Source: Octopus vulgaris (taxonomy: Eukaryota). From it: DNA of 64,000 nucleotides. Of this stretch, positions 1,761 to 61,439 are shown piece after piece. Where the stretch lies: NCBI GenBank assembly GCA_951406725.2, contig OX597840.1, positions 3,038,001-3,102,000 on the forward strand. The letters are read 5' to 3'. Each line of letters opens with the position of its first letter. The stretch's first letter is position 1. The translations under genes and the position numbers were made by a program. The notes under the pieces were generated by a model. That model ran no database searches, was not told the origin of the DNA, and was given only the letters and a program-made list of their open reading frames with translations.

Positions 1761-1822
<62 letters not shown>

Positions 1823-2945: not shown

Positions 2946-4225
2946 ACTGGATATTTATAGTTATCGCCAAGCTAACATGGCAGTCCAGAAAAATAGGACG
3001 AATGCTACCGTTGATTAGCTCCAAGAGGCCATCAGCTCTAGCTAGCTATGTGACACGTGAACCTGTGTTCATTATAACCTTCGAACATGGTAGGTCAGCA
3101 GCTTCCCCTTGCTTGTCTGGCATCCACAGACTAGTTTCGAAATGTTTGCCTCTGGGGGAATTACAACCATGTTTCGTATCTGTTACCACAACACCTCCTT
3201 TATAGGATCCAGTTAGCTCAAGACATCATCAGGAGGAACCACGTCCATTTTCGGCCCCTACTCCTCTACCGTTTTGACGTGTCCCCCATCCTTTCGGAGG
3301 TGTCTTCAGCTCTGGTGTTGGGTGCATGTCTTCTTTCTTCTTCTTTCTTCTGTTCCCTGGCCTCTTCGATGTATCGTTAGCGAGTGTCAGCTGGTGACTG
3401 ACTGACCTGTCAAATTTTTCCCTTTAAATACCTGCTACTAGGCTCCAGCAGGCAGCTCCAGCAGGCAGCCCCAGCAACTTGTCACGTGAGACTGTCTCAC
3501 CTTAACTGACTTGAGAAGGCGCGCAGTTTTAGCCCGCGCATTCTCTAAACGAAGCTGATTCAGTGTCAGCTTGTCTTACCTAATGATGGAGTAGCCGAAA
3601 ATATTTTTTATCATGTATCAAATAAAGAACATACTTTTTGCGGTCGTGTATTTTGTTGAGTATTTCAATGTTGGCTTCGATGGTCTTCGTCATCATTTTC
3701 AGCAGAGAAAAGCGTTTAGTCCTATATGTCTCTGTGTGTTTATCTCTGTTTAATGTCTTGATATTCCCTTCCATTTATACTTTTACCTGATTTGAGTTTC
3801 CATTTATTGCAAGACTGATTCTGATGTGTCACTACCTGTATATTACGAAGCCGTGTGTGCTTTCTATTGAGTAGGTTCCCTGGTATTTTCATTAGCCTGT
3901 AGTAAATCAATACTTTTTCTATGTTTAGTACAATGTGGTTTATCTCCAGTGGGTCTTCAGTAAATCAGTTTCTTTATTTCAATATTTGATACTATATCAG
4001 CTCTTCTAGAAATCTACGAACGTTTGATAAAGTGTTTGCAGTAAAAATTTCCAATCGCTTCTCGTCCTTTATTTCTTCTTAGCTCATATGGCTCTTTTAT
4101 AACACTTGTCTTTTGCATATAGTGTTGCTGTGTGTTATGCATATAGCATATAACACTTTCCGTTAGTTTCATTGCTTTCGCATCATCTTATAGTTTTCTT
4201 TTCATTTTCGTGGTTTTCGTGAACT

Positions 4226-4638
4226 CTTTTACTCTTTACTCTTTTACTTGTTTCAGTCATTTGACTGCGGCCATGCTGGAGCACCGCCTTTAGTCGAGCA
4301 AATCGACCCCGGGACTTATTCTTTGTAAGCCCAGTACTTATTCTATCGGTCTCTTTTGCCGAACCGCTATGTGACGGGGATGTAAACACACCAGCATCGG
4401 TTGTCAAGCAATGCTAGGGGGACAAACACAGACACACAACCACACACAAACATATATATATATACATATATACGACGGGCTTCTTTTCAGTTTCCGTCTA
4501 CCAAATCCACTCACAAGGCATTGGTCGGCCCGGGGCTATAGCAGAAGACACTTGTCCAAGATGCCACGCAGTGGGACTGAACCCGGAACCATGTGGTTGG
4601 TTAGCAAGCTACTTACCACACAGCCACTCCTGCGCCTA
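4226..4638 (-). mobile_element. tRNA-derived SINE family A, full length
   Basis: Minus strand: ggcgcaggagtggctgtgtggtaag (A box), ggttcagtccc (B box), internal (TA)/(TG) tract, 3' ggcggtgctccagcatggccgcagtcaaatgactgaaac and short gagtaaaa repeats. Confidence 0.9.
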
Positions 4639-5047
4639 TGTCCTTTATTTCTTCTTAGCTCATATGGCTCTTTTATAACACTTGTCTTTTGCATATAGTA
4701 TTGCTGTGTGTTATGCATATAGCATATAACACTTTCCGTTAGTTTCATTGCTTTGGCATCATCTTATAGTTTTCTTTTCATTCTCGAGGTTTTCGTGAAC
4801 ATATGGGGATTTATATTCAGTCCAAATTTTTTCGTGAAGACAATACCTCAGAATATCATATTAAGAAGATTCTATTCCTATAGCAACTAAAATATTTTTA
4901 TTGTTTTAGAAATCATCAACGATTCGTTTACTGTTTGATTTACTACTTCACATTTATATCTTTTATCGTTTACTTCTTTCAATTATTGGACTGCAGCCAT
5001 GTTGCATCACCGACTCGTATTTTTAAGTTGAAGACGTCGATCCTAGA

Positions 5048-5948
5048 CGGATTAAGTCGATTACAGTGGCCCCAGTGTGTAACTAGTACTTAATTTATCC
5101 ACCCCGAAAGGATGAAAGGTAAAGTCGACCTCGGCGGAATTTGAACTCAGAACGCAGACGAAATACCTATTTCTTTACTACCCACAAGGGGCTAAACATA
5201 GAGGAGACAAACAAGGACAGACAGACGGGTTAAGTCGATTACATTGGCCTCAGTGTGTAACTAGTACTTAATTTATCGACCCCGAAAGGATGAAAGGTAA
5301 AGTCGACCTCGGCGGAATTTGAACTCAGAACGCAGACGAAATACGTATTTCTTTACTACCCACAAGGGGCTAAACACAGAGGAGACAAACAAGGACAGAC
5401 AGACGGGTTAAGTCGATTACATTGGCCTCAGTGTGTAACTAGTACTTAATTTATCGACCCCGAAAGGATGGAAGGCAAAGTCGGCCTCGGCGGAATATGA
5501 ACTCAGAACGTAACGGCAGACGAAATACCTATTTCTTTATTACCCACAAGGGGCTAAACACAGAGGAGACAAACAAGGACAGACAGACGGATTAAGTCGA
5601 TTACATTGGCTCCAGTGTGTAACAAGTACTTAATTTATCGACCCCGAAAGGATGAAAGGCAAAGTCGGCCTCGGCGGAATATGAACTCAGAACGTAACGG
5701 CAGACGAAATACCTATTTCTTTATTACCCACAAGGGGCTAAACGTAGAGGGGACAAACAAGGACAGACAGACGGATTAAGTCGATTACATTGGCCTCAGT
5801 GTGTAACTAGTACTTAATTTATCGACCCCGAAAGGATGGACGGCAAAGTCGGCCTCGGCGGAATTTGAATTTAGAACGTAACGGCAGACGAAATACGGCT
5901 ACGCATTTTGCCCGGCGTGCTAATGTCTCTGCCAGCTCGCCGCCTTAT
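5048..5948 (-). repeat. Tandem array of SINE B units (~178-184 bp period)
   Basis: The tatttcttta(c/t)tacccacaagg marker starts at 5168, 5346, 5530 and 5714. Only the rightmost unit carries the 5' head. Confidence 0.9.
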
Positions 5949-5974
5949 GACGTCATTATTTCTGCGATAGTGCT

Positions 5975-6085
5975 TCACGACCATGTGTCTTTAGGTGTAG
6001 AAGAACAGATGATAGTCAGGCGGCGCAAAATCAGGAGGATAGGGAGGGTGAGCAACTAGTTCAAGGCCACAGCCACGCACACCAA
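5975..6085 (-). pseudogene. Mariner transposase fragment
   Basis: Minus strand translates LELVAHPPYPPDFAPPDYHLF, matching the mariner HPPYSPDLAPxD motif. Confidence 0.8.
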
Positions 6086-6229
6086 CCATCCGTTGAAAGC
6101 AAAGACTTCTGTGCTGGAACGTTGTCTTGACACCTTCGTCATTTTGCTCACTTTCCTATGTTGGTGGAGAACGTCAACAGTGCGAGATATGACGTCATCA
6201 TCAAAGCTATACTGATTCTTAGTCAGGTG

Positions 6230-6513
6230 TTTTCTTTTGCCGAACCGCTAAGTAACGGGGACATAAACACACCAGCATCGGTTGTCAAACAATGTTGGGG
6301 GGACAAACACAGACACACAAACACACACACACATATATATACATATATACGACGAGCTTCTTTCAGTTTCCGTCTACTAAATCCACTCACAAGGCTTTGG
6401 TCGGCCCGAGGCTATAGCACAAGACACTTGCCCAAGTTGCCACGCAGTGGGACTGAACCCGGAACCATGTGGTTGGTAAACAAGCTACTTACCACACAGC
6501 CACTTCTGCGCCT
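6230..6513 (-). mobile_element. SINE family A, 3'-truncated
   Basis: High identity to 4350-4638. Confidence 0.85.
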
Positions 6514-6912
6514 GGGTCAGAAACCGTAACCATTTCGTCGCAAATCGAGCTTATTTCTGCGCACGTTTATCTTCTTTCATTTTACTTTGTATTTAAAAGT
6601 TCGTCTTGAAATCATAATTTTATCACATATATTTATCATAGATATTTTGCAGTATGTATCTGTGTGTGTATGCGTGTGTGTGTCTGTATGTATTGTATGT
6701 ATAATATTTATTAAAATACGCACGCCATAATAAATAGGTTCTCTTATTTTGTTATTCCCTGTTGATTTGATTGTATTCAAGAGTTCGTTCTAGTATTTTG
6801 TCTCACCGACTTGTTGTCCTTATTGAACGCAACAGTCGTACTTCGTATACGTATCATACATTATATGATAATCACGAGAAATCTATAAAATAAATAACAT
6901 ATTCACCTGCTG

Positions 6913-6947
<35 letters not shown>

Positions 6948-7274
6948 GCCACTTCCTTCTTTTTAGCACAAAACATGGTTTCGATTTTAGTGATGTTATC
7001 TGAATAATTTCATAAACTGTGTGGTGATATTTTTGCTATCGTCCACGTTGTTATTTACGTGAGATACTGAATGCCTATACATAAGCAAAGAGAACGAATT
7101 CAATTGGAAGTAATCGACTTAAACAAAACATAGAGGTGCAGGGGTGGTCATGTGGGAACAAGATTGTTCACCAATCACGTGGTTACAGATTGAGGCCTAC
7201 CAAAGCCTTGTAAGTGGATTTGGTAGGCGAAAACTGAAAGAAGCCTGACGTATATAGATAGATAGCTAGCTAGC

Positions 7275-7345
<71 letters not shown>

Positions 7346-7403
7346 GTAGGTAGGTAGATACGTACGTACGTAGGTAGGTGGGTAGGTAGATTGGTTGGTA
7401 GAT

Positions 7404-8253
<850 letters not shown>

Positions 8254-9490
8254 AATACCAGGTGTGCACTGGGGTCGATGTAATCAACCTATCCATCGCC
8301 CCAAACTTACTGGCCTTGTACTAAAATTTGAAACTAATTTTTACAATGAATATATGAATATATGATGAAGACAGACACGAAGCAAACGTCAGTGTCTTGG
8401 TCTCAAAATGGCGACAAAGGCACACAGACAAACCGACTGGTTATTTGCTCAATCGTTTTGTCAAGAAAATAATTAGTTAAATATCTGATTAATTACCTAA
8501 CAAATTAACTCCTAATAATGCTTCCAAATCTTAGCACTATGTCGGCAATTTCAGGAGTAAGTTGATTACATCGACTCCAGTGCTTAACTAACTGGTACTT
8601 AATTTATCGACCCCGAAACAATAAAAGGCAAAGTGGAAATCGGCAGAATTTGAAATAAAGAAATACCGGTGTTTCGTACAGACGGACGAAATACCGGCAT
8701 TCTAACGATTTTTCCAGCGCACCACTTTAAACTGACTCATAATAAGGATCTTTTTAAATTTGGAAACAAGGCCAGAAATTTCGGATATGGTGATAAGTCG
8801 ATTACCACCACCCCAGTGCATAACTGGTATTTATTTCAGTACCTCATTTTGTAGTTTTTATTGTGACATTGGAAGTATGATGCTATTTGATTATGAGTCT
8901 TTGTATTTTAATGTCCAATGAATTCTGCTGAGGTGGACTTTGCCTTTCATCCTTTAGGCGTCTTCATCATCATTATCATCATCATTATCACGATCATCAC
9001 GTACACCGTTCAAGGGTTCATTCTCTATGCTTGAATGGTTCGACACTGGGGGTGGAGAACGAAAACAGAGGATGGTACCAATCTACACTGTCACATTTGA
9101 TAGTTGTTTCTACGACTCGATGCTCTTCCTGACGCCAACGAATTTACAGAGTTTTGCAGTCTGCTTTATTTTTCGTGAAGCTATGACTACTATGGTCACC
9201 AAAAAACTCGCAAAACAATGATAAAGGCCCTCACCTCTCAACAGAAGCTGGTATAATATTGAGAAATGTAGCTCCGCATTTATTATACCCTAGCTGTCGC
9301 CCTCACTCATCTTTAAAACACAGGACCACATAGTTTTTGTGGCATTTCGCCAAAGAGGCATAAAATGTCACTGAGTCTGTATCGGTTTCCACAGAGCAAC
9401 CAGGCCACACTAGAGGAAGGCGCCGGAATAGCAAGATGAGTATTTAGTCCGGCTTTAAGGTCGTATATACATATATATTTATATACATAA

Positions 9491-9533
<43 letters not shown>

Positions 9534-9600
9534 TATATGAATATATATATATACATACATACATAATTATATATACATATATATTTATATACATAAGTAT

Positions 9601-9665
<65 letters not shown>

Positions 9666-10247
9666 ATATATATGTCAATTTATACAATTTATTATAGAAG
9701 ACACTTGTCCAGGATCTACGCGCTAGGACTTACCCCGGAACCATGTGGAAAGTAAGCCTATCTATATGTATATATATGTGTGTATGTTTATGTGCATGCA
9801 TGGTTGTGTATATACGTGTGTGTATGTATGTGTGTATGTGTACGTGTGTTAGTATGTGTGTGTCTTTATGTTTGTGTTTCTTCCCGCCACTGCTTCACTG
9901 ACAATCGGCATTGGTTTGATTTCGTCCTCGTAAATAGCGGTTCAGCAAAATATACCGTTAATTCCTATATAGTTGACTAAACCCTTTAGTCCGGCTTTAA
10001 GGTCTACTTGACGGATTGCAGTTGTGATTTTGTCATCACAATTCGGAGGGTTTATAAGCTAAGCGCTAACGTGGGAAGAGTAATCTGTTCGAAGCTTTAG
10101 TAATTGTTCGTACCGTAAAAGTGGATTCCAATTCATGTAATTTGTAGAATTTTCATGATTAATTCAATCAGTCTAATGAAATATCTTAATACATCAGATT
10201 TGTACGGTGAATTCATACAATATATACATGTGCAAGCGTATATATAC

Positions 10248-10302
<55 letters not shown>

Positions 10303-10634
10303 AATTCATATATATATGTATATTTATGTGTGTGTGTGTGCGTGTGTGTGTGGTGCGTCTGTGTGCATGCGTGCGTATGTGTAGGTTTATATATATATGT
10401 ATCTAAGTTTATATATATAAAATATATATGTATATATACATATATAAAATATATATATATATATATATATATGAATATGTATGTGTATAAATATGCGCAC
10501 ATATATATATGTGTGTGTGTGTGTATGTATGTATTTATGAAATACATGTAAGAAGGATGGATGCATATGTATATGTATACATAAGTATGTATATATACAT
10601 ATATATACATATATGCATAAGTATATATATATTT

Positions 10635-10685
<51 letters not shown>

Positions 10686-11842
10686 AATATATATATTCAT
10701 ATATATGAATATGAATGTATATATGTATATATATGTGTGTGTATATATATATATATATATCAATTTATACATATGTATATGTATATATACATACACACAT
10801 ACATACGAACATACATACATACATACATACATACATACATACATGCATGCATACATACATACATACATACTTACATACATACATACATACATACATACAT
10901 GCACACATGCATGCATAAACGTATAAGTTTGATTAAACTCACCGGAGTTAATAACGAAAATTTCTGTAATTTACATGAATTGGAAATCAGCTTTTAAGAT
11001 AATACTTTCGTTTATCAACGGTGAATTATAGCAAATATATATGTCGTGCTTATCAGGTTGAATATTAACGATAAAGCCTAGAAACCGATCAACCACTATA
11101 GAATATATAAAGATTATTATCTTTGGGCGAAAATTTAATTATTTAAGTGAGCATGATAAGAATAACAGTGAATTTTTCATAATTCCGCCGTTAGCTTGGA
11201 AAATATATTAACATTTGCTGGTTACATGATGTCTGACAAATGCTTCAGGTTACGTATTATATACTTTAAGTACACAGACGTTTGTTTACGAAAACGATAA
11301 TCGTTGCGGCTGGCTTTTCTTTCAGGAGACTTCGCTGCCTAAATGGACTCCTGGATTCCTGGACTCGTAAAACCTTGGAACGATTGTGAAGATTGCATTA
11401 ATGTAAAGTTGCATTAATCAAAAATGTAAGGGATTATCGGAAATGCTCTTTTAATTTTCGTTAAGTACCGGTATGGAAGCAGATGCAGGGATAATATTTG
11501 ATATAGATATAGATATAGATATAGATATAGATATAGATATAGAGGTTGATGTAGACGCACGGTATCTATTGTGTGGGAGGTTTGGTTGCTATGGTTACCG
11601 TAGGAAGAGGAAATATGAGAACGACTTGTTCTGGTTGTGTTGTGTTGTGTATTGTGAGAGCGATTACAAGTTTGTATGTGTGTGTGTTGTGTGAGTGTGT
11701 GTGTGTTCGTATGTGTGATTCCTGCGTCTATTTGTGTACGTGCACGTGTGTCCTTGTGTTTATGCGTCTGTGTGTATGTATATATGATATAATGTAATAT
11801 TACTTAATATATGTATATGTGTGTGTGTATATATCTATGTAC

Positions 11843-11881
<39 letters not shown>

Positions 11882-12584
11882 CTCAAATATGTACATATAT
11901 ATACGCACCAATACACACACAAGTATATATATATGTGCGTGTACGTGTGTGCGTATCTGTTTGTGTGTGTTTGTGTGTGTATGAATGTATGAATATATGT
12001 GTGTAGCTGTCTGTTTGTTTATATATATATACACGATTCTTCCCACAAACAATAACATCCTAATTGTGCATAAACACACACTTGTACACCTAGAGCACAC
12101 ACACACACAAGTACATGTATATATATACCTGTGTGTGCGTGTGTGTATTTGTGTGAATGCATGTATGTACGTGTGTTTGTGTGTATGTGTGCATGTATGT
12201 GTACAGAAGGGGAGAAAGAGTTGCAATGAACTGGAGACGGCGATGTATTTTCTATACACACACTCAATGCTTTCGATCTAGTTCGTAACCTCATATGAAA
12301 GAAACTCCTGACGAGAGTCGCCATATTTTATGTATATTAATGGTTGTTTATTCGTGGCGGTAATGGGCAGAAATATGCAATGAAAGAATTATTTATTATT
12401 ACGTAAATTTCTTCAATTGTAACTATACAAACCAATTCGTAGAAAATACTGGAATATCTTTCAATGTAAATTTCGAATCATACTTTAGCAACCACTTCTT
12501 CGCTCTCTGTTTAATTGAAATCATGACCATTTTAAATGTGGTTACCGTTGAAAGGAACCAGCAATCCGCCATGTTTTGAGACAT

Positions 12585-12685
12585 ATTAGATTGAAAAGAA
12601 AGCTCCATCATATTTGAAGATGGGGAAAGAAGCAAATGCTTATTTGGTCTTCGTTCATATTTTTAATCAAGATAATATTTCTCAA
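12585..12685 (-). mobile_element. Mariner right-end fragment
   Basis: Reverse complement matches 45438-45538 (aatattatcttgattaa...aagaccaaa.aagcatttg...ccatcttcaaat...ctaata). Confidence 0.7.
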
Positions 12686-12814
12686 CAGTATTGATTTCAA
12701 ACTTTAACACAAAGTCAGCAATTTCGGGATCGAATGTAAGTCGATTACATTGACCCTAGTACTCAACTGGTACTTAGCTTTAAGAGCAAGATAATTAAAA
12801 ATGTCCACCAGTAT

Positions 12815-12985
12815 GGCGCAGGATTGGCTGTGTGGTTAGTAGCTTGCTTACCAATCATATGGTTCGGGGCTCAGTCCCACTGCGTGGCATCTTACGCAAG
12901 TGTCTTCTACTATAGCCTCGGGCCGACCAAAGCCTTGTGAGTGGATTTGGTAGACGGAAACTGAAAGAAGCCCGTCGTATATATG

Positions 12986-13039
<54 letters not shown>

Positions 13040-13240
13040 TGTGTCCGTGTTTGTCCCCCTAGCATTGCTTGACAACCGATGCTGGTGTATTTATGTCCCC
13101 GTCACTTAGCGGTTTGGCAAAAAGAAACCGATAGAATAAGTACTGGGCTTACAAAGAATAAGTCCCGGGGTCGAGTTGCTCGATTAAAGGCGGTGCTCCA
13201 GCATGGCCGCAGTCAAATGACTGAAACAAGTAAAAGAGAG
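12815..13240 (+). mobile_element. SINE family A, full length
   Basis: Head ggcgcaggattggctgtgtgg through tail gactgaaacaagtaaaagagag. Confidence 0.9.
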
Positions 13241-13574
13241 AGTATATGTATATATTGTAGGGAACTTAATTCTTGGCTATTGTGAGTTACTGTGTTGTCT
13301 TCATCATAATATAAGAAAATGAGGATCTTCATCGGTTTCGACGATGAGTTTTAAGCTTTTCGGTGCTACTTATTCATTTATTCCCAAAGGGATAAAAAGC
13401 AAACTGGACCTTGGTGGAATATGAACTCAGAACATAAAGACGGTCGATAGAACGCTATGCATTTTCCTCGCGTGCTAATGATTCTCTCAGCCTGCCGCCA
13501 TATTTCCCCTCATTACTGATTTCAAATTTAGGAACAAGGCCTGCAATATCCGGTGTGAGGATAAGTCAATTACA

Positions 13575-14017
13575 CCGCTCCTGGTGCTCAGCTGGTACCC
13601 ATTTAATCGACCCCGAAAGGATGAAAGGTAAAGTCGAGCTCGGTGGAATCTGAACTCAGAACGTAAAGACAAACGAAATACCTATTTCTTTACTACCCAC
13701 AAAGGGCTAAACACAGAGAGGACAGACAAACGGATTAAGTATATTATATCGACCCCAGTGCGTAACTGGTACTTATTTAATTGACCCCGAAAGGATGAAA
13801 GGCTAAGTCAACCTCGGCGGAATTTGAACTCAGAGCGTAGCGGTAGACGAAATACGGCTACGCATTTCACCCAGCGTGCTAACGTTTCTGCCAGCTCGCC
13901 GCCTTCACCACGAGGCTATAGTAGAAGACACTTGCCCAAGGTGCCACGCAGTGGGACTGAACCCGGAACCATGTGGTTGGTAAACAAGCTACTTACCACA
14001 CAGCCACTCCTGCGCCT
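13575..14017 (-). mobile_element. SINE B dimer plus SINE A 5' fragment
   Basis: Two B central domains (~13610 and ~13785), B head at ~13900, A head at 13910-14017. Confidence 0.8.
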
Positions 14018-14872
14018 AACTCACTGTTTTGTTTTCGTTTAACATTTCATGATAAACGAAGTTGAAGGAACCATCTTCCCGTTGACATGTCCGTATATTT
14101 AAAACTTTATTTCCAAAGGACGAATAATTCTTGCACTTTTGAATTTATGCAACATGCAGTGTCTGATCCGAACGCATTATAAAAGATTTAAGTTAATACG
14201 AATTTAACCTGTATGTTGTGAAGTAGTCTTCAGAGAAAGAAAAAAATAAAATTCGAATGGAAAAAGTGACGTTTATTTTACTGTTAAAATGAGTAACAGA
14301 CACCGCTTCGGTCAAGAATAAACATAGAATTGCCCTTAGTAAATTCCCCTCTCAATCACAAGTCGAGGTAATGTTGTTTGTGGATGGTCGGCAGTCTCCA
14401 ACGGATACCATTCTTCCCTCTTCACGCCAACAATGTCGTCCAAGGGAAAGGCAAAGGGGCCGATACAGCTTGGTACCAATGACGTCGCAACTTATTTCTG
14501 CAGCTGAGTGAACTGGTGCAAGGTGAAATAAAGTGTCTTGCTCAAGAACACTACACACAGCCAAATCCGGGAACCGATCTCACAGCCTCACGGTTGTAAC
14601 CCCAACGATCTAACCACCGAACCATACGCTTTCACTGTAAGTATTTAAAAAAGTACCTTCAAAGGCGCAGCAGTGGCTGTGTAGTAAGAAGCTTGCTACC
14701 CAATCTTATTGTTCCGGGTTCAATCCCACCAGCGGTTCGGCAAAAAAGAGCGTTATAATAATTACTAGGCTTACAAAGAATCAATCATGGCGGTGCTGCA
14801 GCATGGCCACAGACAAACGATTGAAGCAAGTAAGAAAGAATAAAAAAAGAATATGTTGTATTATATACGTAT

Positions 14873-14956
<84 letters not shown>

Positions 14957-15299
14957 TGTATGTATGTATGTATGTATGTATAAGGATAAGATCGTTAATT
15001 TAAATTAAATAAGGATCTTATCAAGTGGCCGGCATGGAAATAAAAACCTTCAAAGGTAATAATTATAATTAAAATTACATATATACATATTCTATTGTGT
15101 GTGTGTACGACGGGCTTCCACACAGTTTCTGTATATTAAATTCACCCACCGGGTATCGGTCACTCAAGAGCTATTGTAAAGAATCCCTTTCCCAAGTGGG
15201 CCGCACAGTGGGACTGAAACTGAAACCAAGCGTTCTTCTTAACCATACAGCCGTTCTTGTTAATCTTTCGTAAACTAAATTTTTCGTAAATCTTTCGTA

Positions 15300-15465
15300 A
15301 GGCGCAGGAGTGGCTGTGTGGTAAGTAGCTTGCTAACCAACCACATGGTTCCGGGTTCAGTCCCACTGCGTGGCATCTTGGACAAGTGTCTTCTGCTATA
15401 GCCCCGGGCCGACCAATGCCTTGTGAGTGGATTTGGTAGACGGAAACTGAAAGAAGCCTGTCGTA

Positions 15466-15514
<49 letters not shown>

Positions 15515-15727
15515 ATGTGTGTCTGTGTTTGTCCCCCTAGCATTGCTTGACAACTGATGCTGGTGTGTTTACGTCCCCGTCACTTAGCGGTTCGGCAAAA
15601 GAGACCGATAGAATAAGTACTGGGCTTACAAAAAGAATAAGTCCCGGGGTCGATTTGCTCGATTAAAGGCGGTGCTCCAGCATGGCCGCAGTCAAATGAC
15701 TGAAACAAGTAAAAGAGTAAAAGAGTG
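15300..15727 (+). mobile_element. SINE family A, full length
   Basis: Near-identical to the reverse complement of 4226-4638. Confidence 0.9.
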
Positions 15728-17439
15728 TAAATATAAATAATGAAATGCGCATAAAAAGCTGTAGAGAAAAACTTACGAATGAAAATTTCTCGAAATTACG
15801 AATGATCGATAATAAATTTTCTGACATTGAATGTTTTGTAAATAAATTTAAGCAGAAGGCATAGAGAATCGCTGTTGCGTTGTGTTTATATTTACTTAAA
15901 TCTGTCCAAATTTTGACAAGTTTCTGACCATGTCAGATTTCTCCTTGGCTCCACATAGAATGGGAATGGTATGAATATTTGGAAGGGTAGCCTTGCACAA
16001 GAAATAAACGTTTTCCAAGTTTCCAATATTTTCAAAGTATGTAAATTTAATTAGTCATAATTAAAAGCCAGATTTTCGCTGCAAGAATTTGATTTTTAGG
16101 TGCAACTATAGGGTTTAAAAAATATTAGTTTTAGGAGTACCGAAAGTTCAAAAGGTAATATTTTTCATCTGGATTTAATAAAAATGCCTAGGTTCTTTTA
16201 AAATAAGATTATTCTAGCATTTAAAGCGTAAATGAAAGAATAACCTTTTTTTTTCATTTTGTCGCATTAACAAATACTTTTCTTTAAAAAAAAGCATTGC
16301 TTGTAATAACAGCCAGCTAGCAGGATAAGAGTGGGGGCGGGAAATGGCATGACGATGATATTCTTAATTAACTGATCATGAAAATGTGAAGGAAAAGACC
16401 AAGTGAAGCATAAAAACATAACAGGTGAAATTGGAATTGCAATTCAAATAAACCATTTTTGGTTTCGGTCGGAAAAAAATATTTCAAATCTTTAAACGGA
16501 AGACAAGTGTGTACTTCGGCAGCTGATTAGTAATGTGGTTAAATTTACAGGGCCATTTTTTCTGGGTATTCAAAGAGATTTGGGTACCCAGATATTCGTT
16601 GGCGTATATTGCGAACCCCTTGCCTCCGGTGGAGATTAATTTATATTTTATCTACGGCAGAAGCTACACGTATATATATGTGTATATACACACACACTCA
16701 CACACACACACATACACACACACACACACACACACATATATACATTCTTTCATTATTTTATTGGAGACCTCTTGAAGGGTTTTAGTCGAATGAATCAATC
16801 GCAGAACTTAAGTTACGGGGATGTAAACATATCAACAGCGGTTATCAAGCGGTGATAGGGGTGGGGGCAAACAGACACACACAAACACACATATAAGTCA
16901 TATATATATGTGTTATATATATAAATGTATATGTGTGTGTGTGCATGTATGTATATATGATGGGCTTCTTTCAGTTTCCGTCTACCAAATCCACTCGAAG
17001 GCTTTGGTCGACCTGAGGCTATAGTAGAAGACACTTGCCCAGGGAGCCACGCAGTGGGACTGAACCCGGAACCATGTGCTTGGAAAGCAAGCCTATATAC
17101 ATTTATATATGTTTATGTGTGTATGTTAATGTGCATGCATGGTTGTGTATATACGTGTGTGTATGTGTATGTATGTGTGTGTGTACGTGTGTGTGTCTTT
17201 ATGTTTATGTTTCTTCCCACAACTGCTTGACAATCGGTATTGGTTTGATTTCGTACTTGTAAATAGCGGTTCAGCAAAACAGAGCGTTAATTCCGATATA
17301 TTTGACTAAACCTTTCTCAGGTCTCTTGCCCCAGAATGGCTGCAGTCCAATAACTAAAACAAATAAAAAAACTAGCTGATAAATGATACATTTATAACGC
17401 ATTATTGAAAATTACCATTTCAGCATCGATTGAAATCAC

Positions 17440-17780
17440 ACACAAACATCTAAAGGAGCACTCCGTCGGTTGCGACGACGAGGGTACCAGCTGATACGAT
17501 CAATGGAACTGCTTGCTCGTGAAATTAACGTGCAAGTGGCTGAGCACTCCACAGACACATGTACCCTTAACGTAGTTCTCGGGGAGATTCAGCATGACAC
17601 AGAGTGTAATAAAGCTGGCCCTTTGAAATACAGATACTACTCATTTTTGCCAGCTGAATGAACTAGAGCAACGTGAAATAAAATATCTTGCCCAAAGACA
17701 CAACGCGCCGCCGTGAATTGAACTCTCGACCTAACGATCATGAGCCGAATGCCCCTAACCGCTATGCCACGCGCCTTCAA
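17440..17780 (-). mobile_element. tRNA-derived SINE family C variant
   Basis: Shared core ctcatttttgccagctga...gagcaacgtgaaat...ttgc(c/t)caa also seen at ~14500, 37110, 46570 and 61520. tRNA-like head at 17700-17780. Confidence 0.7.
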
Positions 17781-18527
17781 TCACAAACATCTGTTATGTT
17801 AAATAGCGTCACATCATTCTGAATATTAAACCTGTTTTCATGTTCTTCATTTCCCAAGGTTTTTACGGAAAGCACTTAATAGCAACGCATATATACACAC
17901 TTCAACGGACATCAACGCATTAAATATTAACATAAACAAAAAACTAATATAAATAGAATTTAAATACACATTCTACAGCGTTCCATTAACTTGTTTTCAT
18001 ATCTTTTATTCTATAAGATTGTCGGGAAAAAATTTATATATTCATTAATTTTGTATATGTGTTTATTTCCCGTTGCGCCAGTCCACTCAGCTAGCAAAAA
18101 CGAATTGCACCTGTATTACAAAGGGCCAGCTTTGTCAGACTATGTGTCACGCTGAATCTCCCTGAGAGCTACGCTAATGGTACACGTGTCTGTGGAGTGT
18201 TCAGCATGCGCAGGTTCTTCCGTGGATCAATTGAAATCCTCGTTGACTCAACCAAAGCAGTATGGAGTGCGACCTATGTGATTTTATAACAAACACATCT
18301 AATCTACTCCTGGCACAGTCGATCAGATTGATCCCAGTACGCAAGTGGTACTTAAGTATCGACCCCGAAAGGATGAAAGCAAAGTCGACCTCGGTGGAAT
18401 TTGAACCCACAACATAAAAACAGATGAAATACCGATAAGCATTTTGGCGGCGGTTTAACGTTTCCTATTTCTTTACTGCTCACAAAGGGCTACACACAGA
18501 GGGGACAAACAAGGACAGACATATACT

Positions 18528-20463: not shown

Positions 20464-20501
<38 letters not shown>

Positions 20502-20688
20502 TATATAAAAGGGCTTAGTAAAATAAATTACTTTGCCACATACTGAACTCATTAGAAATAGTAGCTAAAAAAACTTTTTTAAAACTATTTCTAATACTTA
20601 AAGAAAATCTCTCTCATATAGTGTTTGCTCAATTCAACTCACGAAAGTATGGGGGTAAAGACATTAAAAATCAAATGCAAAGGTTATT

Positions 20689-20740
20689 TGAGAACGTACG
20701 TTTCAAGATTAGTCAACTCGACATTTCTATCATCAGCTCA
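20689..20740 (-). ncRNA. Type I hammerhead ribozyme, canonical core (unit 1)
   Basis: Minus strand reads tgag-CTGATGA-t-aga..gtc..gac..tct-t-GAAA-cgtacg-TT-ctca. Stem I tgag/ctca, palindromic stem III ACGTACGT, GUU triplet. Confidence 0.85.
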
Positions 20741-21247
20741 GAACTCCTTGGTTTGGATTTGAAAACACTGAAAGTGGGAGCATACCCTTTCGGCTTCTTA
20801 TCGCTTCTGAAGATCTGCTCGAAACTAACAGTGCCAGCAAACCCAAAATATGCAAGCGAAGAATTTCTGCTCTCCCCTTTCCACCAGCGTGGGTTAAAAT
20901 CAGTAAACACTATGCTTTTTCGGTAAAATCCGAAGCATTAAATAGAGAAAGATGAATTATAATTTCAACAATTGAGGGTAAAATTAATTAATTATTAATC
21001 AATTTCACCAAGTATTCAGTATGTAAAGGGACCATTTAAGGCGAATTCAAATTATTACATTATATAAAAGGGCTTAGTAAAATAAATTAATTTGCCACAT
21101 ACTGAACTCATTAGAAATAGTAGCTAAAAAAACTTTTTTAAAACTATTTCTAATACTTAAAGAAAATCTCTCTCATATAGTGTTTGCTCAATTCAACTCA
21201 CGAAAGTATGGGGGTAAAGACATTAAAAATCAAATGCAAAGGTTATT

Positions 21248-21299
21248 TGAGAACGTACGTTTCAAGATTAGTCAACTTGACATTTCTATCATCAGCTCA
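21248..21299 (-). ncRNA. Type I hammerhead ribozyme, canonical core (unit 2)
   Basis: Same motif shifted by 559 bp. Stem II tip reads gtcaagttgac. Confidence 0.85.
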
Positions 21300-22114
21300 G
21301 AACTCCTTGGTTTGGATTTGAAAACACTGAAAGTGGGAGCATACACTTTCGGCTTCTTATCGCTTCTGAAGATCTGCTCGAAACTAACAGTGCCAGCAAA
21401 CCCAAGATATGCAAGCGAAGAATTTCTGCTCTCCCCTTTCCACCAGCGTGGGTTAAAATCAGTAAACACTATGCTTTTTCGGTAAAATCCGAAGCATTAA
21501 ATAGAGAAAGATGAATTATAATTTCAACAATTGAGGGTAAAATTAATTAATTATTAATCAATTTCACCAAGTATTCAGTATGTAAAGGGACCATTTAAGG
21601 CGTATTCAAATTATTACATTATATAAAAGGGCTTAGTAAAATAAATTACTTTGCCACATACTGAACTCATTAGAAATAGTAGCTAAAAAAACCTTTTTAA
21701 AATATATACATACACGACGGGCTTCTTTCAGTTTCCGTCTACCAAATCCACTCACAAGGCATTGGTCGGCCCGGTGCTATAGCAGAAGACACTTGCCCAA
21801 GATGCCACGCAGTGGGACTGAACCCGGAACCATTAGGTTGGCATAATTTTCCCCTGTCTTTCAATCTCACTAATTAAGCTACGCAGAGAACTGTTGTAGT
21901 ACACGTGCTGCGTACATTCCTATAACAAAGTTTTCTTTACGAACTATAAAGGCAGAAATAGATCAGCCTTCAACTCAGTTGCGCTTTCACTTTTCGCTTA
22001 CTTTTTTTGTATCTTACTACATAAAGGTCGCCAACTACCCGCCCGCCCTGAGTAGTTACTGACAGCACGTGCCTGCAAAATACGCCATAATAAATGCATA
22101 CAGTCGCAGGCCTG

Positions 22115-23686: not shown

Positions 23687-24103
23687 CTATCAACTGCACA
23701 AAGAAACATTAGAACACAACATATCAATTTATAAATATGTGTGTATGTGTTGTTTTTCGTTGTTTTTTATTTGGTATTTGTTTGCGTTCATATATAACAA
23801 GTATTTCTCTACTACACACAATCCTCCATATATTTCCATGTAATAAGTTTCTTCAAATTTCTTAAAGTTCTCCGTCTATCTTCAGATATGTGTGTGTGTA
23901 TGTGTGTGTGTGTGTGCGTGTTGTGTATGTATTGTGAGAGAGTGAAAGAGAGAGAGAGAGAAATACCATTCTTTTCTCCTTCGTCGAAACATTCCATAAG
24001 GTTCCCTAAATATTTCTACTTTTTGGTTGCCTCCTGATTTCCATAAATGTCTCTCTCTTACCCTATATCTCTCTTCCCCTCATGCACCCTCTCTCTCTCT
24101 CTC

Positions 24104-29238: not shown

Positions 29239-29319
<81 letters not shown>

Positions 29320-29334
29320 TGTAGTTTCAGCTCA

Positions 29335-29625
29335 GAGATGCGGCCATGCTGACGCACCGCTGCCGTTTTGCTACACGGTTATTACTGAGAACCTCCTCCA
29401 ATATGTGGTACTTGTTGAAGAATGGAGTGTAATATAGCTACCCTCATTTGCAACACTTGCCTTGATGTAGGTTCATCTGGGACTCTCGACAGGAAGAGAT
29501 CCAGCTTTGATTTACTTTGTGCCGGTTCCTCGGGCTCTTTGGGAGAATATTATAAAGCTGTGGGCCCTTGAAACCCAGCCTGTTGCAGTAACTGTTCCTG
29601 AAGCGCAATGGTGTTATTGGGATCT
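29335..29625 (-). mobile_element. CR1/L2-like LINE 3' terminal fragment
   Basis: Homologous to 57311-57545 and 30540-30730. Ends in the gcggtgc...gcatggccgc...gagctgaaac tail. Confidence 0.75.
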
Positions 29626-29654
29626 TTATATATATATATATGTATATATATATA

Positions 29655-30083
29655 CAAATAATAAGAGAGAGTCCACCATGTGGTCACTCTAAAGCTAGAT
29701 ATAGATCCGCAAAGGGAATCCGCCACTAAAGCATTGTTCTGAAGAATTAATTCAACACGCCAAGAATGTAAGCGAGCAGGACAAATGAAAAATAACGAAA
29801 AAATATATTAACTCTATACAATTGTTTCATCGTTAATAGATTATGTAGTTTTACTTACATAAGTATTTTCGAATCGTCAGTAGAGTATATCAGAAATATA
29901 ATTTGCTGAACCAAACGGCAAAATCCACACGAAGCCGTACAAAGACGAACGATACAGCCGATTATATTCGCAGTTACGTTCAAATGCTCTCATTCTGGCG
30001 TGTTAAATCCCCGGATGTAAATACTACCCCAGTAATTTACTGCCGATTTGAGAACATATTAATTTATAATTAAAATCACCCTT
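29655..30083 (-). mobile_element. ~430-bp non-coding hammerhead-bearing element in a (TA)n tract
   Basis: TA tracts on both sides. Contains an intact hammerhead motif at 29811-29886. Confidence 0.65.
29811..29886 (-). ncRNA. Type I hammerhead ribozyme, canonical core, long stem II
   Basis: Minus strand reads actcta-CTGACGA-t-tcg..aata..ttatgta/tacataa..tatt..cga-t-GAAA-caattg-TA-tagagt. Stem I is 6 bp; stem III is the palindrome ACAATTGT. Confidence 0.88.
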
Positions 30084-30129
30084 ATATATATATATATATA
30101 TACACATGCATATATTTATATATACATAA

Positions 30130-30770
30130 GGAGATGGCAACACTGGGCATGGGAGTAACTGGATGAATCTTATGATTATTCAGGACCAGAAATAAGGATA
30201 CCTTGCTACTCCTATGGAGAATATTTTTCATCAGTCGTCCGAATTTCTACTTCCTGCAGTGGCCGTTGCAGAGCTTCAAAATGGTGGCGGAACGTGAGGC
30301 AATCCAGCGCCATTACACGAAAAAGATACACTCACGGAAAGAGATGATGACATACTTGGAGAGGGAACTGCAGCTCTGCTCCCTAGAGAGAAGACAAGAG
30401 AGGTTGCAGGGATATACATATGGAATTTACTGGAAGATCTAGATCCCAACTTTGGTATTAAAACCTACAGCAACGACCGAATTATATAGCGCTACATAAT
30501 ACCAAAGACACCGTTTCTTCATCTCAAATAAGGACCCAGTATTGCAGTAGCTTGGGTTTCAAGGGACCACAAATATCTAACATCCTGCCAAGGAACCCCA
30601 GGCATCTGCAAGGTGATGCTGAAACGTTCAAAATGCACAGGGACAATTTTCTATCTGAAAACCCAGATGAGACCACACTATGGCAAGAGGTACAAGGAAT
30701 GGCAGCTTCGTGCAGTTCACTTCTTCACCCAAAAACAGTACCGAAAGGAGACGCCAACAAACTGAAAGGC
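30130..30770 (+). pseudogene. CR1/L2-like LINE ORF2 C-terminal remnant
   Basis: Translates EAIQRHYTKKI...YLERELQLCSLERRQER, resembling the (Y)SLERRRER motif of CR1/L2-group elements. Contains stops and frameshifts. Confidence 0.8.
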
Positions 30771-31512: not shown

Positions 31513-31534
31513 TGTACCAAAATTTCGTAATTCA

Positions 31535-31700
31535 GCGACGTCGTCCGCATATGCAGACAGGGCTCTCTTGTAACATAGTTCCAGCGGCATACCCTTCAAA
31601 TTTTTGCAACCTTTGCAGCAAATGTTGTAATGTTAAAACATATAAAAGCTGGGAGAGAGAGCACCCTTGCCGAACCGTACGTTCGATGCTGAAAAGTTTC
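31535..31700 (-). pseudogene. Reverse transcriptase core fragment (L1/Tx1-like)
   Basis: FSIERTVRQGCSLSQLLYVLTLQHLL (VRQGCPLSP motif), then after a frameshift LSAYADDV (catalytic YADD). Confidence 0.9.
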
Positions 31701-32391
31701 CGAGGAAGAACAGATATTATTCTATTAACACAAGCAACAAGGAAAGCAATATCTAAGGTCACCACGTCATCACCATCATTATCAACAAAAATAAGAACAA
31801 CACCATCGTATATTTTAATAGCAAAAAAAATGACGAAATCAAATAAAGAAACGAATTCAAAAACTATAACATCAACAACAAAAACAGCAACGAAAACAAC
31901 CCAATAATAACAGTATAAAAATAGTAATACAGAGAGTAACAACCACAATAATAACATCAAGACTATCAACGACAACGATAACATCAAAAGAGGCAGACGA
32001 CACTAGCAAGAACGCTGATACAGTACAAAAGAACATGGCTGACTACTTAATACTGTAAAAAAATGATGACAGCCATGTTTTATGAGGTGTCCTGTAGAAA
32101 TTGTTGTAAATGGCGGCGACGTAGAGGTGTTGTTGATAGTAGTGTTGGTGGTGGTGGTGTTGGTGGAAGGTGATTTTGGTGGCGGCGGCGCCTCTAGTCA
32201 CGCTGGTGTTCGCCTTGTTGGTACAGTTGGTGTTAAATTGACTTGCAGAGAGTAAGAGAGTAAAGGGAAGTGTCTGGGAGAAGAGAGCGTTTAGAAACCG
32301 GTTTCAGCTGAGTATAATATCCGCCGGAGAGGAACCATTTTAGACGGAAATTCTATTGCTAAGCATATCTGTCATAAGTACGTATGTACTG

Positions 32392-39319: not shown

Positions 39320-39740
39320 AAGGGCGGCGAGCTGGCAGAAACGTTAGCACGCCGGGCGAAATGCGTAGCCGTATTTCGTCTGCCGTTACGCTCTGAGTTC
39401 AAATTCCACCGAGGTCGACTTTGCCTTTCATCCTTTCGGGGTCGATAAATTAAGTACCAGTTATGCACTGGGGTCTATGTAATCGACTTTATCCGTTTGT
39501 CTGTCCTTGTTTGTCATCTCTGTGTTTAGCCCCTTGTGGGTAGTAAAGAAATTGGTATTTCGTCTGCCGCTACATTCTGAGCTCAAATTCCGACGAGGTC
39601 GACTTTGCCTTTCATTCTTTCGGGGTCGATTAGATAAGTACCAGTTACGCCCTGGGGTCGACATAATCGACTTAATCCGTTCGTCTGTCCTTGTTTGTCC
39701 CCTTTGTGTGTAGCCCCATGTGGGCAATAAAGAAATAAGA
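39320..39740 (+). mobile_element. SINE B dimer (head plus two bodies)
   Basis: Junction aaagaaattggtatttcgtc at ~39546-39565. Confidence 0.85.
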
Positions 39741-44859: not shown

Positions 44860-45538
44860 TTTTAAAATGTGTTTAGGTCAGACCCATACAAGACACTGCA
44901 TGTTGTATGGATTCAAAAGAAGCTCTTCAGTAATGAAAACAACAAGAAATATTCGTTCGATCTTTGGAACTGAGCGTTAGGTATACGACCATGTTATTGG
45001 CTAGAATGCTTTTGCCAATTTCATTATCATGAAGAGTTAAAGCGGAGAAGTATTGTCGTCAATTGAAAGCATTACGCACACACACACAAAGCAAGAAAAT
45101 TACAGAAAATGGCGTCGTCCATCATTGATCGGCCGTGAAGTTGTGTTGCTGTTATATAATATTGTAAAACCACGCAGAGGACAAATCACCCAGGAAAAGA
45201 TTATGGCACAAAATATGGAGGTTTTGCTTCATCCTCTTTACACTCTTGACGTTGTTCAATCTAACAATCGTTTTTCTTTTTTCAGATTATTGCAACATTA
45301 TCTAGAGGGAAATGAGTTTATTAATTGTAAAGAGGTTAAAAATGATATTGAATGTTTCTTTGCTCCGAATCTTGGAACGTTTTCCCCACTAGGGATCAAG
45401 AATTTGCCAAATAGATGGGATTATGTTATCAATAATGAGAGGAAATATTATCTTGATTAAATATATCAACTAAGACCAAAGAAGCATTTGTTTGTTTCCC
45501 ATCTTCAAATGCAACAAGGCTTTCTTTCTAACCTAATA
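44860..45538 (+). mobile_element. Internally deleted mariner transposon
   Basis: N-terminal HIRHCMLYGFKR...TTRNI and C-terminal EVLLHPLY...FRLLQHYLEG...GIKNLPNRWDYVINNERKYY. Ends in aacctaa|ta. Confidence 0.85.
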
Positions 45539-50790: not shown

Positions 50791-52399
50791 AATAACGTTA
50801 GCGGTGTTCATGTTGATATCGACCCTACTCTTTAACTCCTTAATTAGCTTCAGTTCGAGAGCTGCTGCCATGCTGGAGCAACATGCCGTTAATGAAAGTC
50901 CAGATTGTTGCATTGGTGGAGGTATGGGTGGTGGCGTTTGAAGATCGATTTACTATTTAAGCTAGTAGAGGCTGCAGTAGCAATTTCAATCCAAATAACC
51001 ATTATGCCCTTAGTTTCCCTCTACCTCAGCTCTTAAACAGAAGAGCTATAATCAAAGACGCTCCAGTCGTGACTGCTCGGTCATATTTTTATAAGTGATA
51101 TATATATATACATACATATATATACAAACACACGCACACATTATACCACACGAAAACATATACATACATTCACACACAGATACGTATAAACATACATATA
51201 TATATATAAATGGCGGTGCCCCAGCATGGCCACAGCTCATGAGCTGAAACTGGAATCAATCAATCAATCAATCATAAGTTCCTTGCTTTTCCTGATGAGA
51301 AAGCGGCATAATATACTCCTTATTCCTTCGCAATTAGGAATATGCAGCCTTCGAAACTTATGTCGAAAATAAAGAAATTTTGTTAATTCGTCGTTCAACT
51401 CCATTCTTTCATATATTTATATTTAAAAAAAAAAGACATACAAATTTCCACACGAAAGCACGTAACTTCAAACGTGTCTTCTCTGATGTGAATTTGCTAC
51501 CCAGGTATCGGTTAACCAAATTATCCATAACAAGATAATTCATTCAACTACTCAAATATATATATATATACATATATATATGTAGAAAATGGATGTAGAA
51601 AATAAACACACGAACTTATACGAAAATCTCAAACGGACGGAAAACACAGGTCACCAACTTCTTTTCAGTTATCGGCCAGAGGGTCAAGCGCAATTTCGGT
51701 CATTATCGATAATATTACCTCCACTCTGGAGGCACCGACAAGAAACTTGCCGAGATTGGTACCAAATCATGACAATATGTGTGTGTATGTGTGTGTGAAT
51801 AGTGTATATACACACATATATATTTACATATTGACAATCAATAGTGATTAACATGAAATACATAAAGTCACTCCATCCGTAACCATGCTGTCAATTATGG
51901 GTATGCTGGGCGATAATATATTCAGTGCGCTTCCCATTTTGTAAACTTAAGTAAACTTAACTGCTATTTCTTATGAAATGAGCTATTTTTGTTTTGGTGG
52001 TGACGGTTTTATGGCGGGATCACTATAGGAGTCAATGGGGCAGCTATGGTGAGGGTCATGATGGTGAGGCGTATTGATGCTCTTATCATGTTGCACGTAG
52101 CGAGGATTGATTCGCTTATGTCAGTGGTGGTGGTGGTGGTGGCGCTGGTGGTGAAGGTCGTCATCTTGATAGTTGATCTGGTGGTGTTAGTATTTGCGGT
52201 GCTGATTGTGGCCATAGTGGATAAGGTTGCGGTGGTGTTCATGGTGGTGGTGGCGGTAGTGGAGATGTTTGTGGTAGCTGTTGTGATGATACCGGTCAGA
52301 ACCATTGATGCTTTTGTAGTGGTGATGGAGTTAGTCAAAAATGGTGGACAAGGTGTGCTGGTGATGTATATTGTGGTGGTGGTGGTGATGGTGGTGTTG

Positions 52400-59829: not shown

Positions 59830-60610
59830 ATATATTATTTGTTGTAGATGCGTTCAAAAGGGGTCTGTATTTTGTAATAAAGAGACACTTTACTAATTTG
59901 ATGGCAACAGGTTGTATCGTCCCTGAATTGATAGAGGGGAAAATTTGTGAAGCTTGGATTTTTGTTATTGGCGCAAATGTCGATGTGGTGGATGAATGTT
60001 ATTTTTCTGTTGTTTTTTTAATTTTCATCTGGAATCTGTGCATCACTATCCTTTGATGCAGACTGTTTTTGTTTGGCCTATGTATTACTTTTGACACCCA
60101 GAGAAGGTTAGTGAGTTTATAAGGTTCTCCAAAGCATACGTGAAGCTGCTTTTCACTGTAAAACGTTGTACCTGTTTGAAGGAGAACTCTGATCCCTCAA
60201 TTAAATTTATACATATCCTACAGTTGAGTTCTCCGCATTTTTTTTTTACTGACGGCTTCAGTGTTGTTGTTGAGCGTATTCGGGTTTGTGTTAGGAGACT
60301 TTTCATAGATTTGGGCTGTCTCTTGCTTTTTATGATCATGTATGTTTGGAGGATTAAGTTCAATGTTTTGTCCTTTTTTAGCAGGGGAATGTTTTGAAGA
60401 ATGGTATCGAAGGCTTCATTGTTAAGAGGCTTGTTTGTGGATATGTATGGTAGGGCTTTTGGTTGTAAATCCTTCTTTAATTTGGGATGTCTGAGTTCAT
60501 GGATGTTGAGTTGTAGGGCACGTTGAGAGCATTTGTCAATTAGTGAAGGTGGGTAGATCCAGGTGATGAGTGTATCCTTTAGCTCCAGCAGCCGTGTGTC
60601 CCTGGTGCTT
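59830..60610 (-). pseudogene. Penelope-like element remnant (RT thumb, linker, GIY-YIG)
   Basis: Translates RDTRLLELKDTL...YPPSLI...LPYIST...KRQPKSMKSLL...CGELNCRIC...ENLINSLTFSGCQK*YIGQ. Confidence 0.88.
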
Positions 60611-61439
60611 GGGGAGTCGTTAAAATAAGTATCAGTTAAACACTGGAGTCGATGCAATTGATTAAACCTCTCATTCGAAAATGCTGGCCTTTTTCCAAAA
60701 TTTGAAACCAACATTTCGTGTCATGGCGACCAAATTTCTTTATTTTCCTTGGTGGAATATTATACATAGTTCTCAGTCTTCTATTATCAAAGAGTCTCAT
60801 TAGCTCACTTATTCCTTAATATAGCCTACAAAGCATCCGTGTAGAACGTTTCATTTCAAAAAACACCACTAAACTATTTTTTTATTATTATTTTCAGCAT
60901 CAAGCACCGCATCCAAGTTTCAAAACAACAAATCGAAATACAAATTAATTTTGCTCTAAGAAATAAAAAAAATTAAATATTAATGGAATTGCTTGTAATC
61001 GTTTTTATTTATCTATTCAGCATCAAACCTTATTTTCATGAATACCCCATAGCTACTGCGACCCGGTGTTTCATATATTTCTTTTCTCAAATTAATCAAC
61101 AATCTTATTTTACTGTTCTTGCCGAATTGCAAACAGTGAATAAAATTTTTGAGAGGATTCCCAGTAATTCATTCATCTGTGTTCGTGGTGCTTCTTGGTT
61201 TCTTACATTTTTCACAATTATTTTTTTAGTTATTGTTTGCATGTTTGGTTTACAGGTGGGTTAAACCAGGCGATAAAACGTTGCATCATATTAGAGAGAC
61301 ATTACTACTGGATGAGGAGCGGATATCTATGCACATGAATAGGAATAGAGCAGCACATACACGTATAGATGTACACTTTGATCGGACCTCATATATATAT
61401 ATATAAATATATGTATGTATATGGCGGTGCCCCAGCATG

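Follow-up and report, generated by a model that had tools for sequence, protein, structure and literature searches.

What is the 429-bp insert that lies between TA tracts in the 64-kb window analysed here (the whole 64,000-nucleotide stretch of Octopus vulgaris contig OX597840.1), and how did it come to carry a hammerhead ribozyme motif in its middle? The class itself is known: hammerhead repeats tied to Penelope-like elements occur across animals. In O. vulgaris, Penelope-like elements account for 6.83% of the genome, and the accessible parts of the text and supplement of the repeat paper that gives this figure do not mention ribozymes (PMC13282606); for the giant squid, an Rfam-based count of 235 hammerhead-1 loci has been given (PMC6962438). 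Beyond this squid count, the sources partly accessible to our literature search contained no account of hammerhead elements in octopus or other cephalopods, and the element's motif strings were found in no paper by a literature text search.

An initial annotation, made from the letters of the window, had described an independent element of about 430 bp with an intact hammerhead and an extended stem II, and had taken it for a second family with the same architecture and the same (TA)n target as a 559-bp family in the window. 

Coding content and bounds of the insert

The boundaries of the insert, 29655 and 30083, both adjoin TA tracts (Table 1), and its length of 429 bp is that of the element first described. 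It lacks coding capacity. The longest stop-free frame has 74 codons, and an AUG within the hammerhead core, considered as a possible ORF start, was rejected, opening a frame of merely 27 codons without homology. When 151 Penelope-like proteins were used as tblastn queries, no coding remnant was matched in the insert at E 1e-3 or better; the positive control, a Penelope remnant elsewhere in the window (59916..60615), drew 107 matches from the same 151 proteins. The best E values for the insert were 0.005 with the 151 proteins and 0.011 with a profile of the 14 longest, and those for the controls were 0.044 for the flanks and 0.023 for a third hammerhead element. A match to one Penelope protein that runs across the ribozyme was set aside as chance (E 0.005 among 151 queries).

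Neither a tRNA nor Pol III boxes were found in the insert, which itself carries no tail, whether of poly(A) or of simple repeats, and shows no duplicated target sequence beyond the TA tracts. The 64-kb window holds no second copy of the element, and the element has no terminal repeat or redundancy. Short end-to-end pairing within the insert had raised the possibility of a MITE, a reading that was dropped, since this pairing comprises only about 6-9 imperfect bases.

Table 1. Features of the element and of related loci (coordinates are those of the 64-kb window)
Feature	Position	Strand	Remarks
Repeat element, non-coding, 429 bp, 35% G+C	29655..30083	-	RNA sense is minus; 5' end 30083, 3' end 29655
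(TA)n tract at 3' end of element	29627..29654		Presumed target remnant
(TA)n-rich tract at 5' end of element	30083..30128		
Long-range helix, 5' arm	29986..30006	-	About 20 bp, encloses hammerhead domain; predicted pair probabilities mostly 0.7-1.0
Long-range helix, 3' arm	29752..29773	-	Folding prediction
Type I hammerhead motif, whole	29811..29886	-	
Stem I, 5' strand	29881..29886	-	ACUCUA, 6 bp
Core box	29874..29880	-	CUGACGA
Stem II region	29829..29873	-	Extended and interrupted, 45 nt; U29873-U29829 mismatch, then 3+4+7 = 14 bp
Core box	29825..29828	-	GAAA, followed by CAAUUG, then UA
Stem III	29818..29825	-	ACAAUUGU, perfect palindrome; monomer: 2 bp closing a 4-nt loop; two copies together: 8-bp duplex
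Triplet	29817..29819	-	GUA; predicted cut after 29817, 162 nt before 3' end of insert
Stem I, 3' strand	29811..29816	-	UAGAGU
559-bp family	20497..21702	-	2.15 tandem units, two hammerheads (cores 21295, 20736); 3' end at (TA)n 186 nt past last cut
Third hammerhead element	~51275..51556	+	Core CUGAUGA at 51292, GAAA, 54-nt interrupted stem II, 5-bp stem I
Decayed Penelope-like element, Neptune-like	59916..60615	-	RT thumb, cysteine linker, start of GIY-YIG endonuclease; stops and frameshifts

The hammerhead motif and its chance level

Every part that the initial annotation had listed (the CUGACGA and GAAA boxes, the 6-bp stem I, the GUA triplet, the palindromic stem III and the long, interrupted stem II) is present, on the minus strand, the annotation having given no strand. 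The core boxes are accompanied by an NUH triplet (GUA), three helices can be drawn, and the open end lies in stem I, as in type I hammerheads. Judged by its sequence, then, the element at 29655..30083 is the carrier of a real type I hammerhead motif. Absent from the motif at 29811..29886 are the canonical 4-bp helix II with G10.1-C11.1 closure and the contact between loop 1 and loop 2: the base of stem II is a U-U mismatch followed by U-A, the helices of this copy are separated by two internal loops, and the terminal loop sits 14 bp away from the core. The fold of stem II (3+4+7 bp) has a predicted energy of -6.5 kcal/mol, better than that of 493 of 500 shuffles (7 reach it).

To put the motif against chance we used an untuned descriptor (CUGANGA, 4-100 nt, GAAA, 0-12 nt, UH, and a Watson-Crick stem I). 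With a stem I of at least 4 bp it returned five cores in the real window and 0.09 per shuffled 64-kb window, and with a stem I of 6 bp one match in the real window and none in 200 shuffles. A descriptor tuned post hoc on the matches gave four motifs in the window against 0.005 per shuffle. The fifth match of the untuned descriptor, a loose one at 23808-23885 on the minus strand (CUGAAGA, 71 nt, GAAA, 6 nt, UU), is probably due to chance, its stem I being TA repeat and no stem II being evident.

Rfam models returned no match in the 64-kb window at the gathering score, and none of the four hammerhead motifs in the window was detected; at E 10, the interval 29600-30150 gave 25 matches, none of them a hammerhead and most of them microRNA models on TA tracts. 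The ribozyme pattern was matched seven times in metagenome contigs, each time by chance (without a stem I partner and without similarity outside the pattern), and not at all in viral contigs, in which no Penelope-like locus was found.

A repeat family in public sequencing runs

The interval 29320-30770 was aligned to the assembled contigs of 4 out of 24 public sequencing runs, the four coming from four studies and two organism labels. These contigs carry no information on strand, ends or circles; one of the runs, X14, is RNA by conjecture and says nothing about transcription. The interval included two flanking repeats, which filled most of the table rows; 40 of 253 variant letters, 15 of 57 joints and 24 of 1242 loose ends were listed. 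Both neighbours, 29318-29626 and 30130-30770, are repeats bounded by TA tracts, and in each of the four runs the left one greatly exceeds the element in abundance.

Every bin of the element was covered in all four runs, with thousands of contigs on the aligned stretch. In the three DNA runs, summed depth was about 8,000-100,000 over 29663-29858 and about 800-18,000 over 29908-30103, and it fell to 94-170 in the bin after 30103; single listed contigs had depths of about 10-70, and summed depth is not a copy number. These data show that the element is a repeat, and the edge in depth on its 5' side matches the boundary drawn in the initial annotation. The 5' half has a summed depth several times lower than the 200 bp at the 3' end, which fits a longer element truncated at its 5' end and counts against a separate non-autonomous unit.

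Contig pieces that span parts of the element are 86-92% identical to it, and we therefore regard this copy as diverged. Up to 35 contigs per run had an alternative letter at one position of the element; the best runs contain a fraction of 0.41 of the stretch's words, and at 29988 the letter of the window occurs in no contig of runs X1 or X9, so the present copy itself is not seen in them. Within the ribozyme, the 40 of 253 variants listed include three, at 29848, 29863 and 29864, all of them in stem II, and none in the core, stem I or stem III; conservation of the core across copies of the family is at most suggested.

The alternative letter at 29848 (33, 14, 20 and 4 contigs in the four runs) lengthens the top helix, with a gain of -1.7 kcal/mol. 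Those at 29863 and 29864 together contribute -4.2 kcal/mol, and that at 29864 alone +0.3 kcal/mol; the two have equal depths and contig counts in X1, X9 and X14 and are rare in X2 (3 and 1 contigs). As a control, a gain of -1 kcal/mol is attained by 13 of the 135 possible single changes, and one of -4.2 by 39 of 2000 double changes at adjacent positions. The variant letters thus extend the pairing of stem II in other copies, and its length is probably a family trait that has decayed in the copy at hand, a pattern that is not covariation. No head-to-tail joint was among the 15 of 57 joints listed, a set that leaves out TA ends and so is not a real test.

Predicted folding of this copy

The hammerhead can be called intact in its sequence only: in the whole 429-nt RNA, stem I has a predicted probability of about 0.01, that of stem III is at most 0.06, and most of CUGACGA is predicted to be paired. 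For the isolated motif, the hammerhead fold (-8.2 kcal/mol) competes with a fold in which the core is paired (-12.5 kcal/mol). The active fold is thus predicted to be rare in this copy, and the solo copy, having no partner copy and having lost stem II pairs, is probably weak or inactive, so that little activity would be expected from it on its own. Folding of the whole element as a linear molecule gave z scores against shuffles of -1.5 to -1.7 for the ribozyme strand and -4.1 to -4.4 for the opposite strand; modelled folding of the ribozyme strand is not clearly above shuffles and is weak evidence. The 559-bp unit has z scores of -6.5 (linear) and -5.9 (circular) on its ribozyme strand, far beyond shuffles, and as modelled the 559-bp tandem is a stronger candidate than the 429-bp element for expression as a circular RNA.

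Other hammerhead elements of the window and their TA ends

The 559-bp family has a 25-nt stem II that, as had been stated, opens with U-U like that of the element, together with a palindromic stem III and a GUU triplet. The two families do not align: the local score between the 429-bp element and the 559-bp unit is 35, shuffles score 32.0 +/- 4.8, and 54 of 200 are as high. The initial reading of a second, independent family with a type I hammerhead is supported, the element being a repeat in the runs and without alignable similarity to the 559-bp unit. The assertion of a shared architecture survives for the U-U base of stem II and the palindromic stem III and fails for the rest, the element being a solo unit as against a tandem of 2.15 units, with a stem II region of 45 as against 25 nt. 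Opposite its ribozyme strand, each 559-bp unit has a stop-free frame of 134 codons, for which Pfam gave no convincing match.

A third hammerhead element, cut off just 5' of its ribozyme, has a stem II region of 54 nt, a near-palindromic stem III and a GUC triplet with the predicted cut after 51364, and its 3' end meets (TA)n 192 nt past this cut. No pair among the three elements aligns (33-147 of 200 shuffles are as high, in sense orientation), and a word that the third element has in common with the plus strand of the element does not stand out from chance (27 of 200 shuffles are as high).

That the element and the 559-bp family use the same (TA)n target is plausible, and it is not established by the flanks. 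Because TA tracts recur in the window with a median gap of 285 nt (60 of 89 gaps are at most 600 nt), TA flanks alone prove little. More telling is that (TA)n is reached 162, 186 and 192 nt after the cut site in three unrelated hammerhead families; a random position has a 5.2% chance of meeting its first TA tract 150-200 nt downstream, in a range that was picked after the data had been seen.

A Penelope-like remnant in the window

The decayed element at 59916..60615 shares 35% identity with a complete RT/GIY-YIG protein whose endonuclease is preceded by a cysteine linker, a feature that marks the Neptune and Nematis clades (PMC8557442). It shows that Penelope-like elements were once active in the octopus genome. 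The region downstream of it, in which about 230 bp are present twice (59371-59572, 59607-59820), has no hammerhead core box and does not align with the 429-bp insert (shuffles are as high in 148 and 169 of 200 cases). The remnant therefore shows the type of a driver, not the driver.

Comparison with known hammerhead repeats

Like the non-LTR retrozymes of animals (Cervera and de la Pena 2020, PMC7229834), the element is a non-coding unit of a few hundred bp with G+C below 50%, has a stem I of 6 bp and a stem III of 2 bp with a tetraloop, coexists with Penelope-like elements, is multi-copy, and has no tRNA head. Solo monomers are common among such retrozymes, and both solo monomers and units of 51-972 bp have been described (Li, Clavereau and Pollet 2026, bioRxiv 10.64898/2026.07.22.740005). 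The closest single motif is that of the axolotl retrozyme HHR_Amex2, which shares the U-U at the base of helix II and the 2-bp helix III and whose cleavage improves in the dimer (PMC7229834). Where stem III has 2 bp and a palindromic loop, monomers work poorly and dimers do better (PMC4209133, PMC7229834). Unlike these retrozymes, the element stands at its locus as a single unit with no tandem, is known here from DNA sequence and not from RNA circles, has a stem II of 45 nt and 14 bp against the canonical 4 bp, with the usual terminal loop 2 displaced, and ends on both sides within (TA)n, where no duplication can be made out.

With the hammerheads in the pseudo-LTRs (pLTRs) of Penelope-like elements, including those of the Neptune clade (Cervera and de la Pena 2014, PMC4209133; Frangieh 2024, PMC11167929), the element shares the type I topology, a palindromic helix III, a long helix II, occurrence as dispersed single copies, an AT-rich or (TA)n target, and a 3' end of the insert fixed a short way past the ribozyme (162 nt in the element). 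Unlike them, it has no frame on either side, in particular none for RT and GIY-YIG. The minimal pLTR motif has a stem I of 4-5 bp and a helix II of 7-8 bp, itself longer than the canonical 4 bp (PMC4209133); the element differs in its 6-bp stem I, in a helix II about twice as long, and in having neither the G10.1-C11.1 pair nor the extra nucleotide before stem II. The catalytic core and type I topology are also those of the Rfam hammerhead models and of the SINE-like hammerhead repeats of schistosomes. Unlike the former, the element is unmatched even at E 10, and unlike the latter it has no Pol III promoter. By analogy, the element looks like the monomer of an animal non-LTR retrozyme or like a solo pLTR; because the tandem is absent at the locus and no frame is attached, we file it in neither family.

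Origin of the insert

On balance, we consider it probable that the insert is a worn solo unit of a non-autonomous, retrozyme-like hammerhead repeat moved by a Penelope-like element. A master copy, tandem or circular, would give rise to RNA of the family, to which an autonomous Penelope-like element, probably one of Neptune type, would supply its protein in trans; the GIY-YIG endonuclease of that protein would nick a (TA)n tract. Reverse transcription would set in at an internal site, fixed at some 160 nt beyond the ribozyme, and a ribozyme left uncut, or re-ligated, would be copied into the middle of the insert: a start inside the RNA, downstream of an uncleaved hammerhead, would leave the ribozyme mid-insert at a fixed distance from the 3' end. 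The literature offers precedents. A Penelope protein is described that nicks AT-rich DNA and begins to copy its RNA from an internal point, downstream of an uncleaved hammerhead (Frangieh 2024, PMC11167929), hammerhead cleavage is dispensable for Penelope insertion (PMC11167929), and Neptune and Naiad elements have a bias for microsatellites (PMC8557442). The ancestral job of the ribozyme would have been to turn multimeric transcripts into unit-length RNA, and with a stem III of 2 bp it may have cut mainly as a dimer via the ACAAUUGU palindrome, or with the help of a protein. A non-autonomous unit is favoured because the insert has no frame and the 559-bp sister is a tandem without ORFs. Against it, no sequence link between the element and a driver was found in the downstream region of the remnant in the 64-kb window.

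The main competing account would have the insert be the non-coding 3' end (pLTR) of an autonomous Neptune-type Penelope-like element, 5'-truncated before its frame, with no separate family of mini-elements. We hold this to be a serious possibility, if a doubtful one. It is favoured by the excess of summed depth over the 3' part and by how common truncated pLTRs are, most Penelope hammerhead motifs being dispersed single copies from truncated elements (PMC4209133). A Neptune-like remnant is present in the window, and Penelope pLTR hammerheads are described as type I, often with a helix II of 7-8 bp and a small palindromic helix III (PMC4209133), and with a 3' end fixed shortly past the ribozyme (PMC11167929). 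What such an account leaves unexplained is that the roughly 197 nt upstream of stem I and the 162 nt past the cut have no similarity to 151 Penelope-like proteins, that the 6-bp stem I is that of canonical retrozymes, that the motif has neither the G10.1-C11.1 pair nor the extra nucleotide typical of minimal pLTR motifs, and that in the 559-bp sister family units lacking a frame stand in tandem. It is very unlikely that the insert is a hammerhead SINE-like repeat moved by a LINE (RTE, CR1, Tx1) or spread at the DNA level, its TA flanks reflecting richness in microsatellites. TA tracts are indeed dense and also flank the neighbouring repeats, the window has a LINE-type fragment (31532-32002, RVT_1 E 0.021), and hammerhead SINE-like repeats are known in schistosomes (PMC6765202); set against this are the lack of a tRNA head, of Pol III boxes, of a poly(A) or simple-repeat tail and of a target duplication outside TA, and the matching distance from cut to end in three unrelated families. 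Scarcely credible, finally, are a match by chance and a host ribozyme in single copy, unconnected with mobile DNA: the failure of Rfam to match the motif even at E 10 and an active fold that is not the predicted ground state would suit such readings, but none of 200 shuffles gives such a motif, the sequence is a repeat, and three further motifs of like build occur in two other repeats of the window.

Implications

The insert is a modest addition to what is known: an octopod family with a stem II about twice the longest described in the literature found (7-8 bp). In the accessible portions of the literature searched, no extended stem II is described for a hammerhead together with Penelope, and the possible long-stem variants of Lunse 2017 and Arkhipova 2017, like the supplement of PMC7229834, may bear on this novelty. 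Three unrelated families that share a cut-to-end distance and a TA target would also provide a simple test of template choice in trans by Penelope proteins. Because Rfam misses all four motifs of the window and the Rfam count for the squid is just 235, cephalopod ribozymes may be much undercounted.

A bolder proposition, which we think unlikely, is that octopods harbour several unrelated families of Penelope-driven mini-elements whose long-stem-II hammerheads (25, 45 and 54 nt in the window) are hidden from Rfam and whose cleavage and circle formation are gated by protein. Were it true, the long stem would replace the contact between loop 1 and loop 2 with a double-stranded handle for the Penelope RT or for ADAR, octopods being animals that edit their RNA heavily. 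At four motifs in 64 kb, a genome might hold ribozymes in the tens of thousands or more that no count includes; this density is biased upward, coming from one window chosen for this finding.

Other repeats of the window

The DNA of the window is rich in microsatellites. A very common short repeat forms tandem arrays of a 184-bp unit at 5045-5896 (4.7 copies) and 39371-39736 (2 copies), and we take this repeat to be an octopus SINE. The LINE-type reverse transcriptase fragment at 31532-32002, matched by Pfam RVT_1, is on the minus strand, and a plus-strand fragment at 45041-45460, without Pfam support, presumably resembles the end of a mariner transposase. The translation of a common repeat of the window had a single match, to a predicted protein of the octopod Argonauta hians, with 81% identity over 23% of the query.
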